Origin: an uncultured Chloroflexia bacterium
Lineage (GTDB): Bacteria > Chloroflexota > Limnocylindria > Limnocylindrales > CSP1-4
Reading direction: 5' to 3'
DNA length: 64,000 nucleotides
Assembly (NCBI GenBank): GCA_963749705.1
Contig: CAVVNQ010000006.1
Coordinates: 160,001 to 224,000 of the forward strand
Position 1 is the first letter of the stretch. Every line of letters starts with the position of its first letter. This document shows positions 1,525-14,177 of the stretch, piece by piece. The translations under genes and the position numbers were made by a program. The notes under the pieces are model-generated. The model was not told the DNA's origin. It did no database searches and worked only from the letters and a program-made list of their open reading frames with translations.

Positions 1525-2301
1525 TCACTCGCGACCGGTCACCGGCCGCTCGGATCCGCGCACGCCGGGTGCCCACGGGATGACCATCCGGCGCAGCAGC
1601 CCCACGGCCGCGTACAGGACCAGCGACATCGCCGACGTCACGACCACGGCCGCGAACACGAGGTCCGTGCGAAACGCGTTCTGCGACAGCTGCATCCAGA
1701 TGCCGAGGCCCTCGCGGGCACCGACGTACTCGCCGAACACGGCGCCGATCACCGCGTACACGACGGAGATCCGCAGCCCCGTGAACAGGTTCGGCAGCGC
1801 CGACGGCCAGCGCAGCTTGCGGAAGGTCTGGCCGTCGGTCGCGCCGTAGGAGCGCAGCAGCTCGGCCGACTCCGGGGGCGCGCTGCGGAGCCCGTCCAGC
1901 AACGCCACCACGATCGGGAAGAACGTGACCAGGACCACGACCAGGACCTTGGGCGCCAGCCCGAACCCGAACCACAGCAGGAACAGCGGTGCGAGCGCGA
2001 CGATCGGGATCGTCTGCGACGTGACCAGCAGCGGCTCCACGGCGCGGCGCACCACCGGCGCTCGGTCCATCGCGATCGCCGCGCCGACCGCGAGCACGAC
2101 GGCGATGCAGAACCCGATCACCGTCTCGAGCAGGGTCGGGACCGCGTGACGGACCGCTTCCGCGCGGAACGCCCACAGCGCGTCGAGGATCTGGACCGGT
2201 CCCGGCAGCACGACCGGGCTCACCCCGGCGAGCCGGACGTACGCCTCCCACGCGGCCAGCAGCACGACGACGACGGCGAGGGGCGCAGCACGCGATCTCA
2301 T
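1525..2301 (-). CDS. ABC transporter permease, NitT/TauT (ThiX-like) family
   Basis: SQTIPIVALAPL, FFPIVV, LRWPSALP, GAVFGEY motifs; downstream of NMT1/THI5 binding protein. Confidence 0.9.
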   Translation of the reverse strand: MRSRAAPLAVVVVLLAAWEAYVRLAGVSPVVLPGPVQILDALWAFRAEAVRHAVPTLLETVIGFCIAVVLAVGAAIAMDRAPVVRRAVEPLLVTSQTIPIVALAPLFLLWFGFGLAPKVLVVVLVTFFPIVVALLDGLRSAPPESAELLRSYGATDGQTFRKLRWPSALPNLFTGLRISVVYAVIGAVFGEYVGAREGLGIWMQLSQNAFRTDLVFAAVVVTSAMSLVLYAAVGLLRRMVIPWAPGVRGSERPVTGRE

Positions 2302-6886: not shown

Positions 6887-7588
6887 ATGCACGCCGCGTC
6901 CGCGCACGTGCTCGTCGTCGATGACGAGCCCGCGATCACCGACCTCCTTGCCACGGCCCTGCGCTACATGGGCTACCAGGTCACCACGGCCGCGACGGGC
7001 CTGGCAGCGCTCGAGGCCGCCGCCTCCGGGGCACCGGACCTGGTCGTGCTCGACGTGATGCTCCCGGACATCGACGGCTTCGAGGTCTGCCGCAGGCTGC
7101 GGGCCGCGCGCGACTTCGTGCCGGTGATCTTCCTGTCCGCGCGCGACACGGAGGACGATCGGGTCACCGGGTTCGTCCGCGGGGGCGATGACTACGTGAC
7201 CAAGCCGTTCTCGCTCGAGGAGCTGACGCTCCGGATCGGTGCCCTCCTGCGCCGGGTGCGCGGCGGTGACACCGAGGCGGTCCGCCTCCGTTACCGCGAC
7301 CTCGAGATGGACGAGGACCGCCACCAGGTCTGGCGGGCGGGCCGCGAGGTCGCACTCTCCCCCACCGAGTTCCGCCTGCTCCGCTACTTCCTGCTCAACC
7401 CGGACCGGGTGCTTTCCAAGCAGCAGATCCTCGACCACGTCTGGCAGTACGACTTCAACGGCGAGGACAACGTCGTGGAAACGTATGTCAGCTACCTCCG
7501 CAGGAAGCTGGACGACCCGGAGCCGAGGCTGCTCCAGACGGTCCGGGGCTTCGGCTACGTGCTGCGCGCCGAGGGCGACCCATCGTGA
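6887..7588 (+). CDS. phoP: OmpR/PhoB-family response regulator, mycobacterial PhoP-like
   Basis: VLVVDDE, LDVMLPD, GGDDYVTKPFSLEE, LSPTEF, ILDHVW, NVVETYVSYLRRK closely resemble M. tuberculosis PhoP as recalled. Confidence 0.85.
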   Translation: MHAASAHVLVVDDEPAITDLLATALRYMGYQVTTAATGLAALEAAASGAPDLVVLDVMLPDIDGFEVCRRLRAARDFVPVIFLSARDTEDDRVTGFVRGGDDYVTKPFSLEELTLRIGALLRRVRGGDTEAVRLRYRDLEMDEDRHQVWRAGREVALSPTEFRLLRYFLLNPDRVLSKQQILDHVWQYDFNGEDNVVETYVSYLRRKLDDPEPRLLQTVRGFGYVLRAEGDPS

Positions 7589-7637
7589 CCGACCCCTCCG
7601 CCCGGGCCGCCCGGCGTCGCGACGACGGCCCTCGGCC

Positions 7638-9089
7638 GTGACCCTGCGCACGCGGCTGCTGGTGTCGCTGGGGCTGATGCTGGCCGTGGCGCTGGTGGGC
7701 GCCGGGGCACTCGTCGTCGGCCTGACGCGAGCCTCGCTGGTGGACCAGGTGGACCGCGAGGTGCGGTCGGTGGGCACCGACGTCAACCGTCTCGAGCGGA
7801 TCGCGGCCACCCTCGCGACCGACGACCTGACCGGACGCCGGCTGGCGCTGATGCGGCTCGACCGCCAGGGCCGGATCGTGCAATCACTTCCGTCCGGGTT
7901 CGCCAGCAGCCCGGATCCGCTGCCCGCGATGCCGGTCTATCCGGGGGGAATCCCGCCCACCGCCTTCGACAGGGTGATCGAGGTCCCGGCCGAGGACGGC
8001 ACGACGCGCTACCGCGTGGTCATCGAGCACGGTCGGGCGAACCTCGTGTTCGCCGTCGCCGCCCCGCTCGCCGGCGTCGATGACGCAATCCGGACGCTCG
8101 TCCGCAGCCTGGTCCTGGTGGGCGCGCTGGCCATGGTGGCGCTGCTGGCCGTCGCCTGGGTCGTCGTCCGTCGCGGCCTCTTGCCGCTCGAGCGGATCTC
8201 GCGCACGGCCGAGCAGATCACCGCGGGCGACCTGTCCCATCGAGCCGGGATCCCCCACGACGATACGGAGGTTGGGCGCCTGGGCACGGCGTTCGACGCA
8301 ATGCTCGACCAGATCGAGTCGAGCTTCGCGGAGCAGCAGGCCGCCCTGGACGCCAAGGCCGGCTCGGAGGTCCAGCTCCGCCGCTTCGTCGCCGACGCAT
8401 CGCATGAGCTGCGGACGCCGTTGACGGCGATCCTCGGCTACGCGGACCTGTACCACGCCGGCGGCCTCGGCGATGCCGCGGGCCTCGATGTCGCGATGGA
8501 CCGTATCGGTACCGAAGGCCGGCGGATGAGCACCCTGGTTGACGACCTGCTGCTGCTCGCGCGGCTCGACCAGGGCCGCCCGCTCCGCCGCGATCCGGTG
8601 AGCCTGACCCGGATCGTCGAGGACGCCGTCGCCGACGCGCGCGCGCTCGAACCGGAGCGCCCGATCGATGCTGCGATCGAGCCGGACGTCCTCGTCACCG
8701 GCGACGAGGACCGGTTGCGACAGGTGGTCGGCAACCTGCTCGCCAACGTGCGCATCCACATCCCGAGGCGCGCCAGCGTCGACATCGCCGTCAAGCGTGA
8801 CGTCGGGTTCGCGGAGCTCCGCGTCGCCGACCGAGGACCGGGCGTGGATCCCGTCCACGGCGCCCGCGTCTTCGACCGCTTCTACCGGGCCGATCCCGGC
8901 CGGGCGCGCGACAGCGGCGGGACCGGCCTTGGCCTCTCGATCGCGACCTCGATCGTCGCTGCCCACGGCGGCGAGCTGTGGCACGAGCCGACGCCCGCCG
9001 GCGGCGCCACCTTCGTGGTCCGCCTCCCGATCACAGCAACATCACAGCCCGTCCCCGGCCCGGTTTCAGGCGACGCCACGACCATCTGA
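7638..9089 (+). CDS. HAMP-domain sensor histidine kinase (PhoR-like)
   Basis: Two TM segments, HAMP, FVADASHELRTPLT, NLLAN, DRGPG, FDRFYR, GTGLGLSI; GTG start 7638. Confidence 0.93.
   Translation: MTLRTRLLVSLGLMLAVALVGAGALVVGLTRASLVDQVDREVRSVGTDVNRLERIAATLATDDLTGRRLALMRLDRQGRIVQSLPSGFASSPDPLPAMPVYPGGIPPTAFDRVIEVPAEDGTTRYRVVIEHGRANLVFAVAAPLAGVDDAIRTLVRSLVLVGALAMVALLAVAWVVVRRGLLPLERISRTAEQITAGDLSHRAGIPHDDTEVGRLGTAFDAMLDQIESSFAEQQAALDAKAGSEVQLRRFVADASHELRTPLTAILGYADLYHAGGLGDAAGLDVAMDRIGTEGRRMSTLVDDLLLLARLDQGRPLRRDPVSLTRIVEDAVADARALEPERPIDAAIEPDVLVTGDEDRLRQVVGNLLANVRIHIPRRASVDIAVKRDVGFAELRVADRGPGVDPVHGARVFDRFYRADPGRARDSGGTGLGLSIATSIVAAHGGELWHEPTPAGGATFVVRLPITATSQPVPGPVSGDATTI
9031..9048 (+). promoter_or_regulatory. 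Perfect PhoP box inside the kinase 3' end
   Basis: TCACAGC-aaca-TCACAGC about 100 bp upstream of the next gene. Confidence 0.75.
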
Positions 9090-9144
9090 TCACCGCGCCG
9101 CAGCGAGATCCCCGCGGCACGCCACTAACCGGAGGCATCCACGC

Positions 9145-9696
9145 GTGAAGCTCAGCAAGACCCTCGTGCTCCCCGTTGCAGCGCTGCTCGTCGTGAGCGC
9201 CGCCGGCGCGGTGTTCGCAACGACCGGCTCCCCCGCCCCGGCCGGGACCGACAACGTCATCCCGGCCGCAGACGCCACGCCGACGCCGGCCGCCTCGACC
9301 GCACCCGCGCCGGTCGCCAAGGACTCGCTCCTGTCGGACGTGCTCGACGGCCTGGTCACCAAGGGCACCATCACGGCCGGCCAGAAGACCGCGATCCTCG
9401 ATGCGCTGGCGACGGAGCGAACCGCCCGCCGGACGCTGCGGCAGCAGGAACGCCAGCAGCTCAAGGATTTCCTGTCCGATGGCGTCATCACGCAGGATGA
9501 GCTCGCCCAGCTGCCCGCTGACAGCCCGATCCGGAAGCTCACCGGGATCCTCGACGACGGCAAGATCACGGTCGACGAGCTTCGTGGCCTCCGGCGTGGA
9601 CTGCTCGGCGGCCGTGGCCCCGGCCGCCTTGGCGGAGGTGGGCTGTTCGGCGGCCCCAGGGCAACCCCCGCACCGAGCACGGGCACCAGCGGCTGA
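9145..9696 (+). CDS. Secreted hypothetical protein
   Basis: GGAGG SD, GTG start, signal peptide, Pro/Ala/Thr linker, repeated LVTKGTIT/LSDGVIT/LDDGKIT motifs. Confidence 0.75.
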   Translation: MKLSKTLVLPVAALLVVSAAGAVFATTGSPAPAGTDNVIPAADATPTPAASTAPAPVAKDSLLSDVLDGLVTKGTITAGQKTAILDALATERTARRTLRQQERQQLKDFLSDGVITQDELAQLPADSPIRKLTGILDDGKITVDELRGLRRGLLGGRGPGRLGGGGLFGGPRATPAPSTGTSG

Positions 9697-9720
9697 GCCG
9701 CTCCCGGCACTCGCGATCCT

Positions 9721-9753
9721 CATGGCCCGCCGGCAACGGCGGGCCATGCTCTT
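9721..9753 (+). terminator. Hairpin, probable intrinsic terminator
   Basis: Perfect 12-bp stem CATGGCCCGCCG-GCAA-CGGCGGGCCATG; weak U tract. Confidence 0.6.
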
Positions 9754-9837
9754 GCCTCCGCGACGGGGTGTCGCATCACGCGCCATCGCCGCGGTGGGTC
9801 CTCGCGGTGTCCCGGCCAGCCACGACGACGCAGGCGG

Positions 9838-10005
9838 CGTGGCCCGTGGCGCCACGAAGTCGCCGTCGGTGCGCCCGGACTAAGCGTTTGGCCGGGCTTC
9901 GTGGCTCGTGGCGCCACGAAGTCGCCGTTGGTGCTCCCGAATCAGCCCGGATCGAACGGTTTGGCCGGCCTTCGTGGCCCGTGGCGCCACAGAGTCGCCC
10001 TTCGG
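9838..10005. repeat. Three REP-like repeats with palindromic core GTGGCGCCAC
   Basis: CGTGGCYCGTGGCGCCACRRAGTCGCC three times, ~62-74 bp apart, with similar linkers (GTTTGGCCGG). Confidence 0.75.
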
Positions 10006-10165
10006 ACCCTGCCCGAGCTCGACCGGGGCGGATTCGGGGCCTCGCAGCCAACGGTCTCTGCTGCGCCGCGCAGGCCGCCGCCCCGCGCCGGCCGCCGACC
10101 CGCGCCGACGGGCAACGCCCCCGAGCAGCCTTCCGTTGCGTTTCGGTTGCGACGGCGCCCGGGGG

Positions 10166-10195
10166 TTGACGCGACCCCACCCGTTGCCCCATCCT
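10166..10195 (+). promoter_or_regulatory. Putative sigma70 promoter of the met leader
   Basis: TTGACG-N18-CATCCT, 10 nt before the leader ATG. Confidence 0.45.
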
Positions 10196-10205
10196 CCGGG
10201 GCCTG

Positions 10206-10292
10206 ATGAGTCACACCACCGTCTCCTGGTCGATGTGTATGCGTGGGCGGCCCCGCCGTGCGGAGGATGGGCGCCGAGCAATCCCGCGCTGA
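10206..10292 (+). CDS. Putative attenuator leader peptide MSHTTVSWSMCMRGRPRRAEDGRRAIPR
   Basis: ATG 10206 to TGA 10290-92; ATG-TGT-ATG at 10233-41; followed by antiterminator/terminator; too short for the ORF track. Confidence 0.65.
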   Translation: MSHTTVSWSMCMRGRPRRAEDGRRAIPR

Positions 10293-10333
10293 ACGTCAGC
10301 GAGTGACAGCGGGATCTCGGAGCTGAGGTCCCG

Positions 10334-10369
10334 GGGCCGCGAACCGATGGGTTCGTGGCTCTTTTGTTT
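10334..10369 (+). terminator. Intrinsic terminator (attenuator) in the metY leader
   Basis: GCCGCGAACC-GATG-GGTTCGTGGC followed by TCTTTTGTTT. Confidence 0.85.
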
Positions 10370-10460
10370 CTCCGGCATACACGACGGGTAGCCGCCGAGC
10401 TCGACCCTTCTGGGGCCCTCGACGCAATCCACACCCGCCGACCAACCGGAGAGACCCGCA

Positions 10461-11799
<1,339 letters not shown>

Positions 11800-11804
11800 G
11801 CGCC

Positions 11805-12944
11805 ATGGCGCCAACCGGCACGCAGTCCCCGGGGCGTACGCGCGCTCCGGGGACCTCGCCCTCGTCGCGGGGACCGGCCTCGCCCCCGCTGGGGACGGGG
11901 CGCATCCAGACCGTCGAACTAGGGGTAGGGGCTTTGGACCTCGACGCGGGCGGCCACCTGCCGTCGGTCACCCTCGCCTACCGCCACGACGGGCCGGGGC
12001 CGGATGCCCCACAGGTCCTCGTGATCCACGCGCTCACCGGCTCCGCCGACGCGGCCGGTGACTGGTGGGCGCCGCTCATCGGGGCGGGGCGCGCGTTCGA
12101 CACCACCAAGGTCGGCGTCCTGTGCGCCAACCTGCTCGGCGGTCGCTACGGCTCCACCGGGCCCACCTCGATCGATCCCGCGACCGGAGCGCCATGGGGC
12201 GCCTCCTTTCCGGTCGTCTCGGCTCGCGACGAGGCCCGCGTGCTGTGGGCGCTCGCCGACGAGCTCGACATCGAGCGGTTCGCCCTCGTCACCGGCGGTT
12301 CGCTGGGCGGGATGATCGCGCTCGAGGTCGCACTGGCGCGGCCGGACCGGGTCGGTCACGTGGTGCCCATCGCGGCGCCCGCGGCAACGACCGGGCTCGC
12401 GCTTGCCTGGAACCACATCCAGGTCGGGCTGGTGGACCGCTTCGGCGTCGAGGGCCTGAGCTTCGCGCGCCAGCTGGCGATGACGACCTATCGCTCGGAG
12501 GCCGATTTCGACCTCAGGTTCGCGCGACAGCAGGAGGAGGACGGCCGGTTCTCGATCGCGTCCTACCTCGACCACCAGGGCGCCAGGCTTGTCGACCGGT
12601 TCGATCCCGACACCTATCGCACCCTGGTCCGGATCATGGACGGGCACGACATCGGCCGCGGTCGGGGCGGAGCCGTGGCAGCGCTGCGGGCGCTGGCCGG
12701 CGCCGGGACGCTGCTGACCGGGCTCGCCGTCGGCGGCGACATCCTGTATGGACCGGACCAGGTCCGGGCGCTGGTCGCCGATGCCACGGCGGCCGGCGTC
12801 GATGCCCGGTATCTCGAGCTCAACTCCACGAAGGGGCACGACGCGTTCCTGGTCGAGTGGGAGCAGCTGACCAGCGTGCTGTCGGCTGCGCTCGCCCTCG
12901 GGCCTGCCCGCACCGGACCGCTCGGCGTCACCGGCGCGGCCTGA
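11805..12944 (+). CDS. metX: Homoserine O-acetyltransferase
   Basis: HALTG, GSTGP, GGSLGGM, ARQLAMTTYRS, SYLDHQG, GHDAFL; follows metY. Confidence 0.88.
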   Translation: MAPTGTQSPGRTRAPGTSPSSRGPASPPLGTGRIQTVELGVGALDLDAGGHLPSVTLAYRHDGPGPDAPQVLVIHALTGSADAAGDWWAPLIGAGRAFDTTKVGVLCANLLGGRYGSTGPTSIDPATGAPWGASFPVVSARDEARVLWALADELDIERFALVTGGSLGGMIALEVALARPDRVGHVVPIAAPAATTGLALAWNHIQVGLVDRFGVEGLSFARQLAMTTYRSEADFDLRFARQQEEDGRFSIASYLDHQGARLVDRFDPDTYRTLVRIMDGHDIGRGRGGAVAALRALAGAGTLLTGLAVGGDILYGPDQVRALVADATAAGVDARYLELNSTKGHDAFLVEWEQLTSVLSAALALGPARTGPLGVTGAA

Positions 12945-13025: not shown

Positions 13026-13100
13026 TGGCGCGTGGCCTAACGGTATGGCACCTGACTCTGGATCAGGGGGTTCCAGGTTCGAATCCTGGCGCGCCAGCCA
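13026..13100 (+). tRNA. tRNA-Gln(CTG)
   Basis: TGGCGCG/CGCGCCA acceptor stem, anticodon arm CCTGA-CTCTGGA-TCAGG, GGTTCGAATCC, encoded CCA; TAGAAT at 13009. Confidence 0.97.
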
Positions 13101-13102
13101 AC

Positions 13103-13150
13103 ACACAACCTGTGGTGCAGCCAACGTGGCTTGACCACCAGATGTTGTGG
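13103..13150 (+). promoter_or_regulatory. Tandem NrdR-box-like motifs overlapping TTGACC
   Basis: ACACAACCTGTGGTGC (13103) and CCACCAGATGTTGTGG (13135), 32 bp apart, versus consensus acaCwAtATaTwGtgt. Confidence 0.5.
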
Positions 13151-13190
13151 TTTCGACCCTCCTCGGACGCCACGCCGAGGAGGCCGCTCG

Positions 13191-14177
13191 ATGGCTAGTA
13201 CGCCTGACTCCTACCCCGTTCGTTCGCCTGATTCACGTAGGAATCGGCGCGCTTCGCTTGATTCTGTTGCCCCTGATCACTTCTCAGGCGGCGATCCGCT
13301 CGCCGTTGGGCTCGGCACCGCGGTCGATCTGTTCCTCGCGGCAAAGGCCGCCGAGGGCGCGTCGCCGAACACGGTCGAGTGGTACCGGATGATCACCGGC
13401 CGCGCCGTGCGCCGGCTCGGCCCCGGCCGGCCGCTCGACGGCGTCGGGGCGCCCGAGCTGCGCGCCTGGCTGCTCGAGCTGCGCGCGACGCTCTCCCCCG
13501 AGTCGATCGCCGGCTACGTCCGCGGCCTCAAGGCGTTCGGCAACTGGTGCGCGGCCGAGGAGCTGGGCGAGGCCGCCGGCTTCCGGGCGCTCCGGCGGCC
13601 GCGCGTCCCGCGCCGGCTCATCGCCCCCTTCACCGACGCCGAGCTGCAGCGGATGCTCGCCCTCGCCGAGCCCCGCGAGCGCGCCATCGTCCTGCTCCTG
13701 CTCGACACCGGGCTGCGGCTCGCCGAGGCGCAGCAGCTCCGGGTCGGCGACCTGCGGCCCGACGGGACGGTCCGGGTCATGGGCAAGGGCTCGAGGGAGC
13801 GGATCGTGCCCGTCGGCGCCACCGCCCGCCGGGCGGTCGTACGCTACGTCGCGGGGCGCGGCGCCGCCCGCCCGGGCGACGCGCTCTTCGTCGGCGCGCG
13901 CGGGGGGCCGATCCAGAGGCGCACCCTCCAGAGGGCGATCGCGGATCTCGGGCGGCGCGCCGGGGTCGGCACCCGCTGCAGCCCCCACACCTTCCGCCAC
14001 ACGTTCGCCCGCAGCTTCCTCGTCAACGGCGGCGACGTCTTCAGCCTGCAGCAGATCCTGGGCCACACCACGCTCGACATGGTCCGCCGCTACGTCAGCC
14101 TGACTGAGGCCGATCTCGTCGCGAGGCACCGGGCCGCGTCGCCGGCCGACCGGCTGGCGCGGGGCCGCACGGCGTGA
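13191..14177 (+). CDS. Tyrosine recombinase/integrase 1
   Basis: GAGGAGG SD; DTGLR, GKGSRER, HTFRH, LGH..RRY (catalytic R-K-H-R-H-Y intact); adjacent to tRNA. Confidence 0.93.
   Translation: MASTPDSYPVRSPDSRRNRRASLDSVAPDHFSGGDPLAVGLGTAVDLFLAAKAAEGASPNTVEWYRMITGRAVRRLGPGRPLDGVGAPELRAWLLELRATLSPESIAGYVRGLKAFGNWCAAEELGEAAGFRALRRPRVPRRLIAPFTDAELQRMLALAEPRERAIVLLLLDTGLRLAEAQQLRVGDLRPDGTVRVMGKGSRERIVPVGATARRAVVRYVAGRGAARPGDALFVGARGGPIQRRTLQRAIADLGRRAGVGTRCSPHTFRHTFARSFLVNGGDVFSLQQILGHTTLDMVRRYVSLTEADLVARHRAASPADRLARGRTA

Follow-up and report, generated by a model that had tools for sequence, protein, structure and literature searches.

What controls metY and metX in an uncultured Chloroflexia bacterium, when methionine (Met) and lysine (Lys) genes are textbook cases of riboswitch, T-box or repressor control? 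The question is raised by the leader upstream of metY on contig CAVVNQ010000006.1 (assembly GCA_963749705.1), of which positions 160,001 to 224,000 were analyzed; this 64-kb stretch is called the window, and all coordinates are positions within it. A sequence-only reading of this DNA had proposed that the leader is a ribosome-mediated attenuator responding to Met and cysteine (Cys). The analysis reported here indicates that metY-metX is probably controlled by such a transcription attenuator, which would sense charged Met-tRNA and, in the genus of the window, also Cys-tRNA.

The leader reading frame and its sensor codons

Analysis of the region upstream of metY revealed a 28-codon open reading frame (ORF) with the codons ATG-TGT-ATG and, between this ORF and the first gene, an intrinsic terminator (Table 1). 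The terminator is a 13-bp stem with a 4-nt loop (10333 to 10362), followed by the tail TTTGTTTCTC. The elements described in the sequence-only reading were all recovered where it had placed them: the ORF with its sensor codons, the exact complementarity of GCGGCCCCG (region 1) to positions 10332 to 10340, which overlap the 5' arm of the terminator, the hairpin at 10274 to 10320, in which the leader stop lies, and the terminator followed by a U tract. The 9-mer GCGGCCCCG was found four times on both strands of the window (5.0 expected), and the chance of a copy within 130 nt upstream is about 0.005 to 0.04 by our own arithmetic, which alone is only moderately unlikely. Because the leader is conserved, the complementarity goes beyond chance.

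The leader ATG lies 10 nt 3' of a putative -10 box, which leaves no room for a Shine-Dalgarno (SD) sequence; the earlier statement that no SD precedes this ATG holds, as the 10 nt upstream directly follow the conserved promoter. In other genera, the box reads CATACT, CACACT or CATAAT and is followed by 9 to 10 nt and then the start codon, and the same spacing of 9 to 10 nt was observed in all genera inspected. Judged from this spacing in the sequence alone, the small ORF would be leaderless or nearly so. A consensus promoter scan called no promoter at the leader; the promoter assignment comes from conservation.

A MetY search of 41 related genomes yielded 23 loci with 77 to 100% identity. The leader was found in 21 of these metY loci; in the other two it is cut off by the contig end (L013) or metX stands upstream instead (L018). 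A 17-base scan of public genomes together with nhmmer raised the set to 57 distinct cores. The exact 17-mer scan also returned many chance matches in unrelated phyla, and matches were used only where nhmmer confirmed them. The genus alignment revealed near invariance from the sensor codons through the terminator, with variable flanks and hairpin loops. An alignment of metY upstream regions from relatives had been proposed as a check, and it showed that the small ORF, the Met codons, the terminator and the antiterminator pairing are kept. A 30-nt match to the sensor-proximal part of the leader (ATGCGTGGGCGGCCCCGTTCGG...) in L096 (1183 to 1686, minus strand) was set aside, as it has neither Met-x-Met or other sensor codons nor a terminator match. 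The assembly, another one from Chloroflexia, has an aminotransferase-like ORF downstream of this partial match.

Comparison of the leaders at genus level indicated that the ORF is translated, because its variation is mainly in third positions and its insertions and deletions are in frame or compensated. The ATG stands at the same place in 54 of 56 distinct leaders. Codons 3 to 8 and 11 vary mainly at the third position, to which nearly all change is confined in codons 4, 5, 6 and 11 of 44 distinct canonical sequences. Ser7 alternates between TCC and AGC/AGT, and Leu9 between TTG and CTG. Codon 11 is TGT in 19, TGC in 23 and an Arg codon in 2 of the 44 sequences, while both Met codons are invariant. 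Five leaders carry a 3-nt in-frame deletion, and 12 have a -1 deletion followed by a +1 insertion that restores the frame, so that the same UGA is reached. From codon 13 onward, synonymous sites are fixed as well, which points to a constraint at the RNA level. The leader thus has the short translated 5' ORF of leader-peptide attenuators. Codons 3 to 8 (10209 to 10232) keep the amino acids H-T-T-V/L-S-W with synonymous change in this genus and in some others.

A covariance model built from the leader was run on the genome of the window and on genomes of the class. Matches were obtained in 40 of 151 class genomes and in 14 of 35 genera, many genomes having two copies; they belong to families f1 (30 of 44 genomes) and f4 (9 of 50), with none in f2 (0 of 6) or f3 (0 of 49). 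After removal of a duplicate (L166) and a weak match without the motif (L203), 43 distinct leaders outside the genus set remained, of which 28 carry M-x-M, 14 K-x-K and one CCC as the sensor. The x in M-x-M is C, Q, S, V or A, with some leaders reading MMSM or CMCM, and the K-x-K variants are KKK, KSK, KAK and KRK. Seven weak phylum-wide matches were returned outside the class; those that were read (L205, L206 and L208) were terminators or chance matches without a leader ORF, and L210, inside the class, was a terminator only.

All 99 leaders have a common chassis, which consists of xGG-CGG-CCC, a sequestering hairpin and the terminator. In 99 of 99, the three sensor codons are at positions -4 to -2 relative to xGG-CGG-CCC; 84 leaders have M-x-M, 14 have K-x-K and one has CCC. 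The gene downstream of the 14 K-x-K leaders is dapB in every case (PF05173 was checked in 5, the other 9 were assigned by tblastn), and metY lies downstream of 25 of the 28 leaders with M-x-M that come from outside the genus. One Met-type leader (L184) is from an unpublished genome (G156), and no claim is made on it alone; without it the count is 24 of 27. The three remaining Met leaders precede an SCO4226-like gene (two leaders) or a 90-amino-acid ORF (one leader). The genome of the window holds a second, weaker match on another contig (G000:C10:104497-104640; L151:1501-1644). This sister leader has an AAG-AAG-AAG sensor (...SFDAKKKLWRPRRKARALGL*) and its own terminator, and it lies 44 nt before dapB (PF05173). 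Such agreement between sensor codons and downstream pathway is what comparative analysis usually takes as the mark of leader-peptide attenuation, and a ligand-binding RNA would hardly account for it. Of the Met/Cys sensing proposed earlier, Met is the constant part; Cys is frequent at the middle position, but other lineages have S, V, A, Q or R there.

Some of these leaders stand before other genes. The SCO4226-like gene (PF14026, matched on L179 only) follows the Met leaders L177 (G054) and L179 (G104) of family f4, and no metY was found within the stretch fetched for either. In L175 (G080) and L185 (G045), an OsmC-like gene (PF02566) lies between the Met leader and metY-metX. The CCC leader (L196; G135:C41, about 1801 to 1933, minus strand; MRVIRGACCCPGRPRR...) precedes a gene of the beta-carbonic-anhydrase family (PF00484), which suggests a sulfur-related role for that enzyme.

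TABLE 1 Leader elements and controlled genes on the window
Feature	Position	Strand	Basis or remark
Putative -35 box TTGACG	10166-10171	+	Unvaried in 20 of 20 aligned same-genus leaders; conservation only
Putative -10 box CATCCT (pattern CAnnnT)	10190-10195	+	Alignment columns C33, A34 and T38 invariant
Leader ORF, 28 codons, MSHTTVSWSMCMRGRPRRAEDGRRAIPR*	10206-10292	+	ORF reading, genus alignment
Sensor codons ATG-TGT-ATG (Met10, Cys11, Met12)	10233-10241	+	Both Met invariant
Region 1, antiterminator 5' strand GCGGCCCCG; doubles as P1 5' arm	10247-10255	+	Synonymous sites invariant; pairs with 10332-10340
Hairpin P1 (10248-10257 with 10266-10276), predicted sequestrator of region 1	10248-10276	+	GGAGGA in loop; predicted folds
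P1 extension, GCGUGGG (10241-10247) with CCCGCGC (10283-10289); putative competitor of P2	10241-10289	+	Predicted in minimum-energy folds
Hairpin P2, inner stem containing leader stop UGA (10290-10292)	10274-10320	+	Folds, covariation
Hairpin P3 (10311-10319 with 10324-10332); excludes P2, adjoins terminator	10311-10332	+	Folds, genus alignment
Intrinsic terminator, stem 10333-10345 with 10350-10362, then U-rich tract	10333-10369	+	13 pairs, covariation
Post-terminator element UUUCUCCGG, anti-SD (complement of metY SD region)	10367-10375	+	Complementarity
Element DE CGACGGGTAGCCGCC, complement of region 1 and its 3' flank	10382-10396	+	Near invariant in genus
metY SD region CCGGAGAGA	10446-10454	+	Sequence, conservation
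metY, O-acetylhomoserine sulfhydrylase family, Cys/Met pyridoxal phosphate enzyme	10461-11799	+	PF01053, E = 1.9e-136
metX-like alpha/beta hydrolase	11805-12944	+	PF00561 only

Predicted structures and proposed attenuation

The genus alignment was used to determine how well the predicted pairs are kept. The terminator is 99.5% paired with three compensatory pairs. One compensatory pair was found in P2 (C-G to U-A in L124 and L125) and one in P3, which has a variable loop and 97.3% of its alignment cells paired. The P1 extension is paired in 94.9% of cells with zero compensatory changes, and the antiterminator is 99.5% paired but invariant.

At class level, a model-fitted alignment of 60 leaders, which is fitted to the structure under test, revealed compensatory changes in 26 of 35 modelled pairs (upper P1 stem, 4 of 6; P2, 15 of 16; terminator, 7 of 13), with 233 cells changed on both sides compared to 74 +/- 7.5 in shuffles. 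The antiterminator, which would use the terminator 5' arm, keeps 7 to 9 of its 9 pairs in all 60 leaders from many genera. The covarying antiterminator/terminator pairs that the sequence-only reading had looked to were therefore obtained in different measure: the terminator covaries, and the antiterminator is conserved with one compensatory pair (C-G to U-A in 7 leaders; U-G in 2). Six of the 7 U-A leaders also have A at the position that pairs with this base in P1. This joint change fits a strand that would alternate between two partners, for which the invariance of region 1 at synonymous sites would also be expected.

Folding was modelled both for the full-length leader at equilibrium and for the growing transcript, with the ribosome footprint masked. 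In the growing transcript without a ribosome, P1 and its extension form first, followed by P3 and finally the terminator. A ribosome placed at Met10 or Cys11 blocks the extension and lets P2 form, and as long as the terminator 3' arm is not yet made, the best fold contains an 8- to 9-bp antiterminator. Under these conditions the antiterminator persists in the folds of the full-length leader for L004 and L008. The stepwise folds hence favor the step from stall to antiterminator that the sequence-only reading had proposed, but simple equilibrium folding fails to reproduce the switch. Its account of masking divides in the same manner: a stall frees region 1 in the stepwise folds, but full translation does not mask it in this genus, where the stop codon lies too far 3' and a ribosome on it leaves 10247 to 10255 uncovered. 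In the genus of the window, region 1 is likely sequestered by P1 and its extension instead. Most other genera have the stop directly after P1, 9 to 10 codons past xGG; a ribosome that terminates at this position would lie over region 1, in line with the classical models.

The analysis shows that the ORF is translated, that a terminator is present, that the complementarity is conserved and that the sensor codons agree with the pathway. On this basis, the models suggest the following scheme of folding order and response to starvation. Transcription would start a few bases 5' of the leader ATG, and a ribosome would translate the 28-codon leader. When Met is ample, the ribosome would pass region 1, which would then be covered or trapped in P1 and its extension; P3 and the terminator would form, and transcription would halt before metY. 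When Met-tRNA or Cys-tRNA is scarce, the ribosome would stall at codons 10 to 12, just 5' of region 1. The stalled ribosome would block the P1 extension and let P2 form, and region 1 would pair with the terminator 5' arm (10332 to 10340), allowing the polymerase to proceed into metY.

Several observations weigh against this attenuator. The full leader at equilibrium folds into P3 and the terminator for any ribosome position, and a modelled ribosome at the stop codon of this genus likewise allows the antiterminator; the folds of truncated transcripts discriminate only in part between the states, and the switch would therefore have to be kinetic. The only covarying antiterminator pair appears to reflect few independent events, its carriers being related to each other. 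The leader has only two Met codons, and a shortage of Met would also slow initiation on a leaderless ORF. The conserved N-terminal H-T-T-V-S-W is not required by pure codon sensing. Finally, the conserved elements downstream of the terminator would not be explained by an attenuator, the anti-SD only partly.

Contigs from RNA libraries do not decide on the scheme, as they are uninformative on starts, ends, strand, level and ribosome occupancy and may include DNA carry-over. Two metatranscriptome runs from two studies, with small shares, yielded a 201-nt contig identical to 10291 to 10490, which spans the terminator, and a 767-nt contig of a relative that covers 10201 to 10345 and 10454 to 10634; no claim is drawn from either.

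Post-terminator elements and alternative explanations

The first post-terminator element, the anti-SD UUUCUCCGG, is complementary to the metY SD over 9 bp, and for both L004 and L010 the minimum-energy fold contains a helix that closes the SD. A search for partners of the anti-SD gave raw positives in 30 of 60 leaders, several of them spurious, and only the same-genus cases with the site directly before metY were used; in these, 11 of 17 leaders tested, the best downstream partner ends 1 to 7 nt before the metY start. The SD region is also the best partner in several other genera, with the matched change from UUCUCC/GGAGAA to UUCCUCC/GGAGGAA. The second element, DE, is near invariant in the genus and identical in the divergent leader L078. 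Outside the genus, DE also occurs in Met-type leaders. The anti-SD is found in most Met-type leaders, and the Lys type carries neither element. Both the Lys-type leaders and the subclade L009/L014/L136 lack the post-terminator elements and keep the terminator. A long duplex of the leader ORF with the region downstream of the terminator would be hypothetical: its mean energy is -41 kcal/mol, but the mean z against mononucleotide shuffles is only -2.1, a weak signal that is weakest in the window (z of -0.7).

These elements tentatively suggest a second, translational lock on metY. It is conceivable, although doubtful, that one portable chassis serves a whole class of Chloroflexota, with specificity given by the three-codon cassette (Met, Lys or Cys) alone, and that in the Met version a hub of region 1 and the GGAGGA loop first captures the terminator 5' arm and then pairs over about 20 bp with 10367 to 10375 and 10382 to 10396, freeing the metY ribosome-binding site. 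If this is true, one stalled ribosome would unlock both transcription and translation of metY.

The anti-SD also allows the explanation that the sensor ORF acts mainly on metY translation, with 10367 to 10375 masking the SD, ribosome position deciding on its unmasking, and the terminator being secondary. The 9-bp complementarity, the closing helix in the L004 and L010 folds and the choice of the SD region as best partner, with its matching changes, are in line with this, and mycobacterial poly-Cys leaders offer a precedent, as far as the accessible part of that report describes them (10.1101/834739). However, the terminator with its U tract is the best conserved and best covarying part of the leader and is kept by the leaders that lack post-terminator elements, and the shuffle controls for the anti-SD duplex are weak; this explanation is considered unlikely. 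The amino acid conservation in codons 3 to 8 of this genus, with its synonymous change, could instead reflect an arrest peptide, in which the nascent chain together with a small molecule (Met or S-adenosylmethionine [SAM]) stalls the ribosome and codon supply is not the signal. Such residue conservation does not extend through the family: H-T-T-V-S-W is absent from many genera in which M-C-M and the chassis are retained (e.g., leaders that start with MNTYRRS or MHAINPTP). Moreover, conservation 3' of the sensor is at the nucleotide level, and the exchange of Met for Lys codons before dapB fits tRNA sensing, which makes an arrest peptide quite improbable.

Met genes are usually under SAM riboswitches, and the very high nucleotide conservation, including the unpaired GGAGGA loop, UGACA in P2 and DE, would suit a riboswitch or a protein-binding leader, with the small ORF either incidental or there only to open up the RNA structure. 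An Rfam scan of 8000 to 12000 with E values up to 10 revealed no riboswitch, T-box or leader family, and a scan of six related loci with E values up to 1 returned nothing relevant; the check for a SAM or T-box match that had been proposed, extended to the lysine riboswitch, thus came out negative for the window and these loci. The ORF carries a coding signature, and one chassis serves Met, Lys and Cys genes with the sensor codons as the sole consistent difference, which a single ligand pocket cannot explain. We regard a riboswitch or protein-binding leader as very unlikely. A histidine kinase gene on the same strand ends at 9089, and the terminator could belong to this upstream unit, with a chance ORF and no regulatory role. 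Yet the kinase gene and the leader are about 1.1 kb apart, the ORF is immediately preceded by a conserved promoter, and the leader accompanies metY across genera. The terminator-only explanation is already contradicted by conservation and is extremely improbable.

Genomic neighborhood and relation to known systems

The histidine kinase gene (7239 to 9089) lies 5' of the leader on the same strand. In the approximately 740 bases after it (9090 to 9830), no Pfam-matching ORF was found; two ORFs without a family, 8668 to 9696 (plus strand) and 9031 to 9855 (minus strand), overlap there. A 45-nt unit occurs three times in direct orientation at 9833 to 10012, in the long spacer 5' of the leader promoter; the copies show 100, 89 and 69% identity, have a spacing of 62 and 73, and each include a palindrome (CTTCGTGGC...GCCACGAAG). 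They look like a repeat of the repetitive extragenic palindromic (REP) type.

The metY frame is broken by an extra G near 10521 to 10523 (10519 to 10525, GCCGGGCCAG); all 19 relatives in the alignment have GCCGGCCAG or an equally long variant here, and the RNA-library contig of a relative is also without the extra G. The frame that begins with the ATG at 10461 therefore stops prematurely, and the main frame extends from about 10522 to 11799. Judged from this alignment, the frameshift would be either an assembly error or a fresh pseudogene. The hydrolase encoded at 11805 to 12944 is presumably metX (homoserine O-acetyltransferase), a name taken from its position and label and not from a specific family test. 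A tRNA-Gln gene (13026 to 13100) is directly followed by a gene of the phage-integrase family (13131 to 14177); this place immediately 3' of metX is a likely site of mobile element integration.

The leader resembles the classical amino acid attenuators (trp, his, leu, thr, ilv and phe in proteobacteria; trp and ilvB in actinobacteria) in having a leader ORF with pathway codons, a terminator and an antiterminator that shares the terminator 5' arm. Two sensor codons suffice in the trp attenuator. It differs from them in its Met (with Cys) sensor, replaced by Lys in the sister leaders, in an ORF that lacks an SD and starts next to the promoter, in a homologous chassis common to leaders of different specificity, in its Chloroflexota lineage, and in having no sequence match to Rfam leader families. 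SAM riboswitches, Met T-boxes and the lysine riboswitch control metY/metX- and dapB-type genes by premature termination or SD masking. In contrast to these, the sensing element here is a translated ORF and gives no Rfam match.

For Actinobacteria, PMC1262725 states that Met and Lys operons showed no RNA elements upstream, and it names S-box and L-box control as known for these amino acids. According to the accessible part of the study by Canestrari et al., the leaderless poly-Cys small ORFs of mycobacteria act on the ribosome-binding site (bioRxiv 10.1101/834739). As far as that description reaches, both systems have a sensory ORF before sulfur amino acid genes, which in the present leader would be leaderless or nearly so, several loci and a possible SD mask, with ribosome pausing as the signal, here a proposed one. 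The present leader differs from them in that a single Cys stands between two invariant Met residues instead of a Cys run (the one CCC leader is in another genome) and in that a canonical terminator with a U tract makes a transcriptional output most likely. The ilvB1 leader of Mycobacterium tuberculosis, in the part of the source available, is an attenuator with LVVI regulatory codons (PMC13236596). It is likewise an upstream ORF with few regulatory codons and alternative terminator and antiterminator structures, although it responds to a different amino acid in a different lineage. By the same partial account, a ribosome at the ilvB1 stop codon masks the antiterminator, whereas the stop in the genus of the window is too far 3' to mask region 1.

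In full-text searches, no Met- or Lys-codon leader attenuators and no attenuators in Chloroflexi were found, in agreement with the earlier statement that no description of a Met-sensing attenuator was known for this lineage; this search did not extend to subscription journals and supplements, where prior computational predictions are possible. The leader appears to be in kind a classical attenuator, within a modular family that was not found in print. It differs from the classical ones in the Met/Cys and Lys sensors, the apparently near-leaderless ORF, the Chloroflexota lineage and one chassis for several amino acids.

Homologous leaders that switch Met, Lys and Cys codons together with the controlled gene represent a natural codon-swap experiment, and they illustrate how the specificity of an attenuator can change. 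They also argue that sensing of Met by ribosome stalling is possible despite the need for Met in initiation. The leaders offer a direct, testable design for programmable amino acid sensors, as well as a regulatory marker for the annotation of sulfur and lysine metabolism in an uncultured class of soil and water Chloroflexota.
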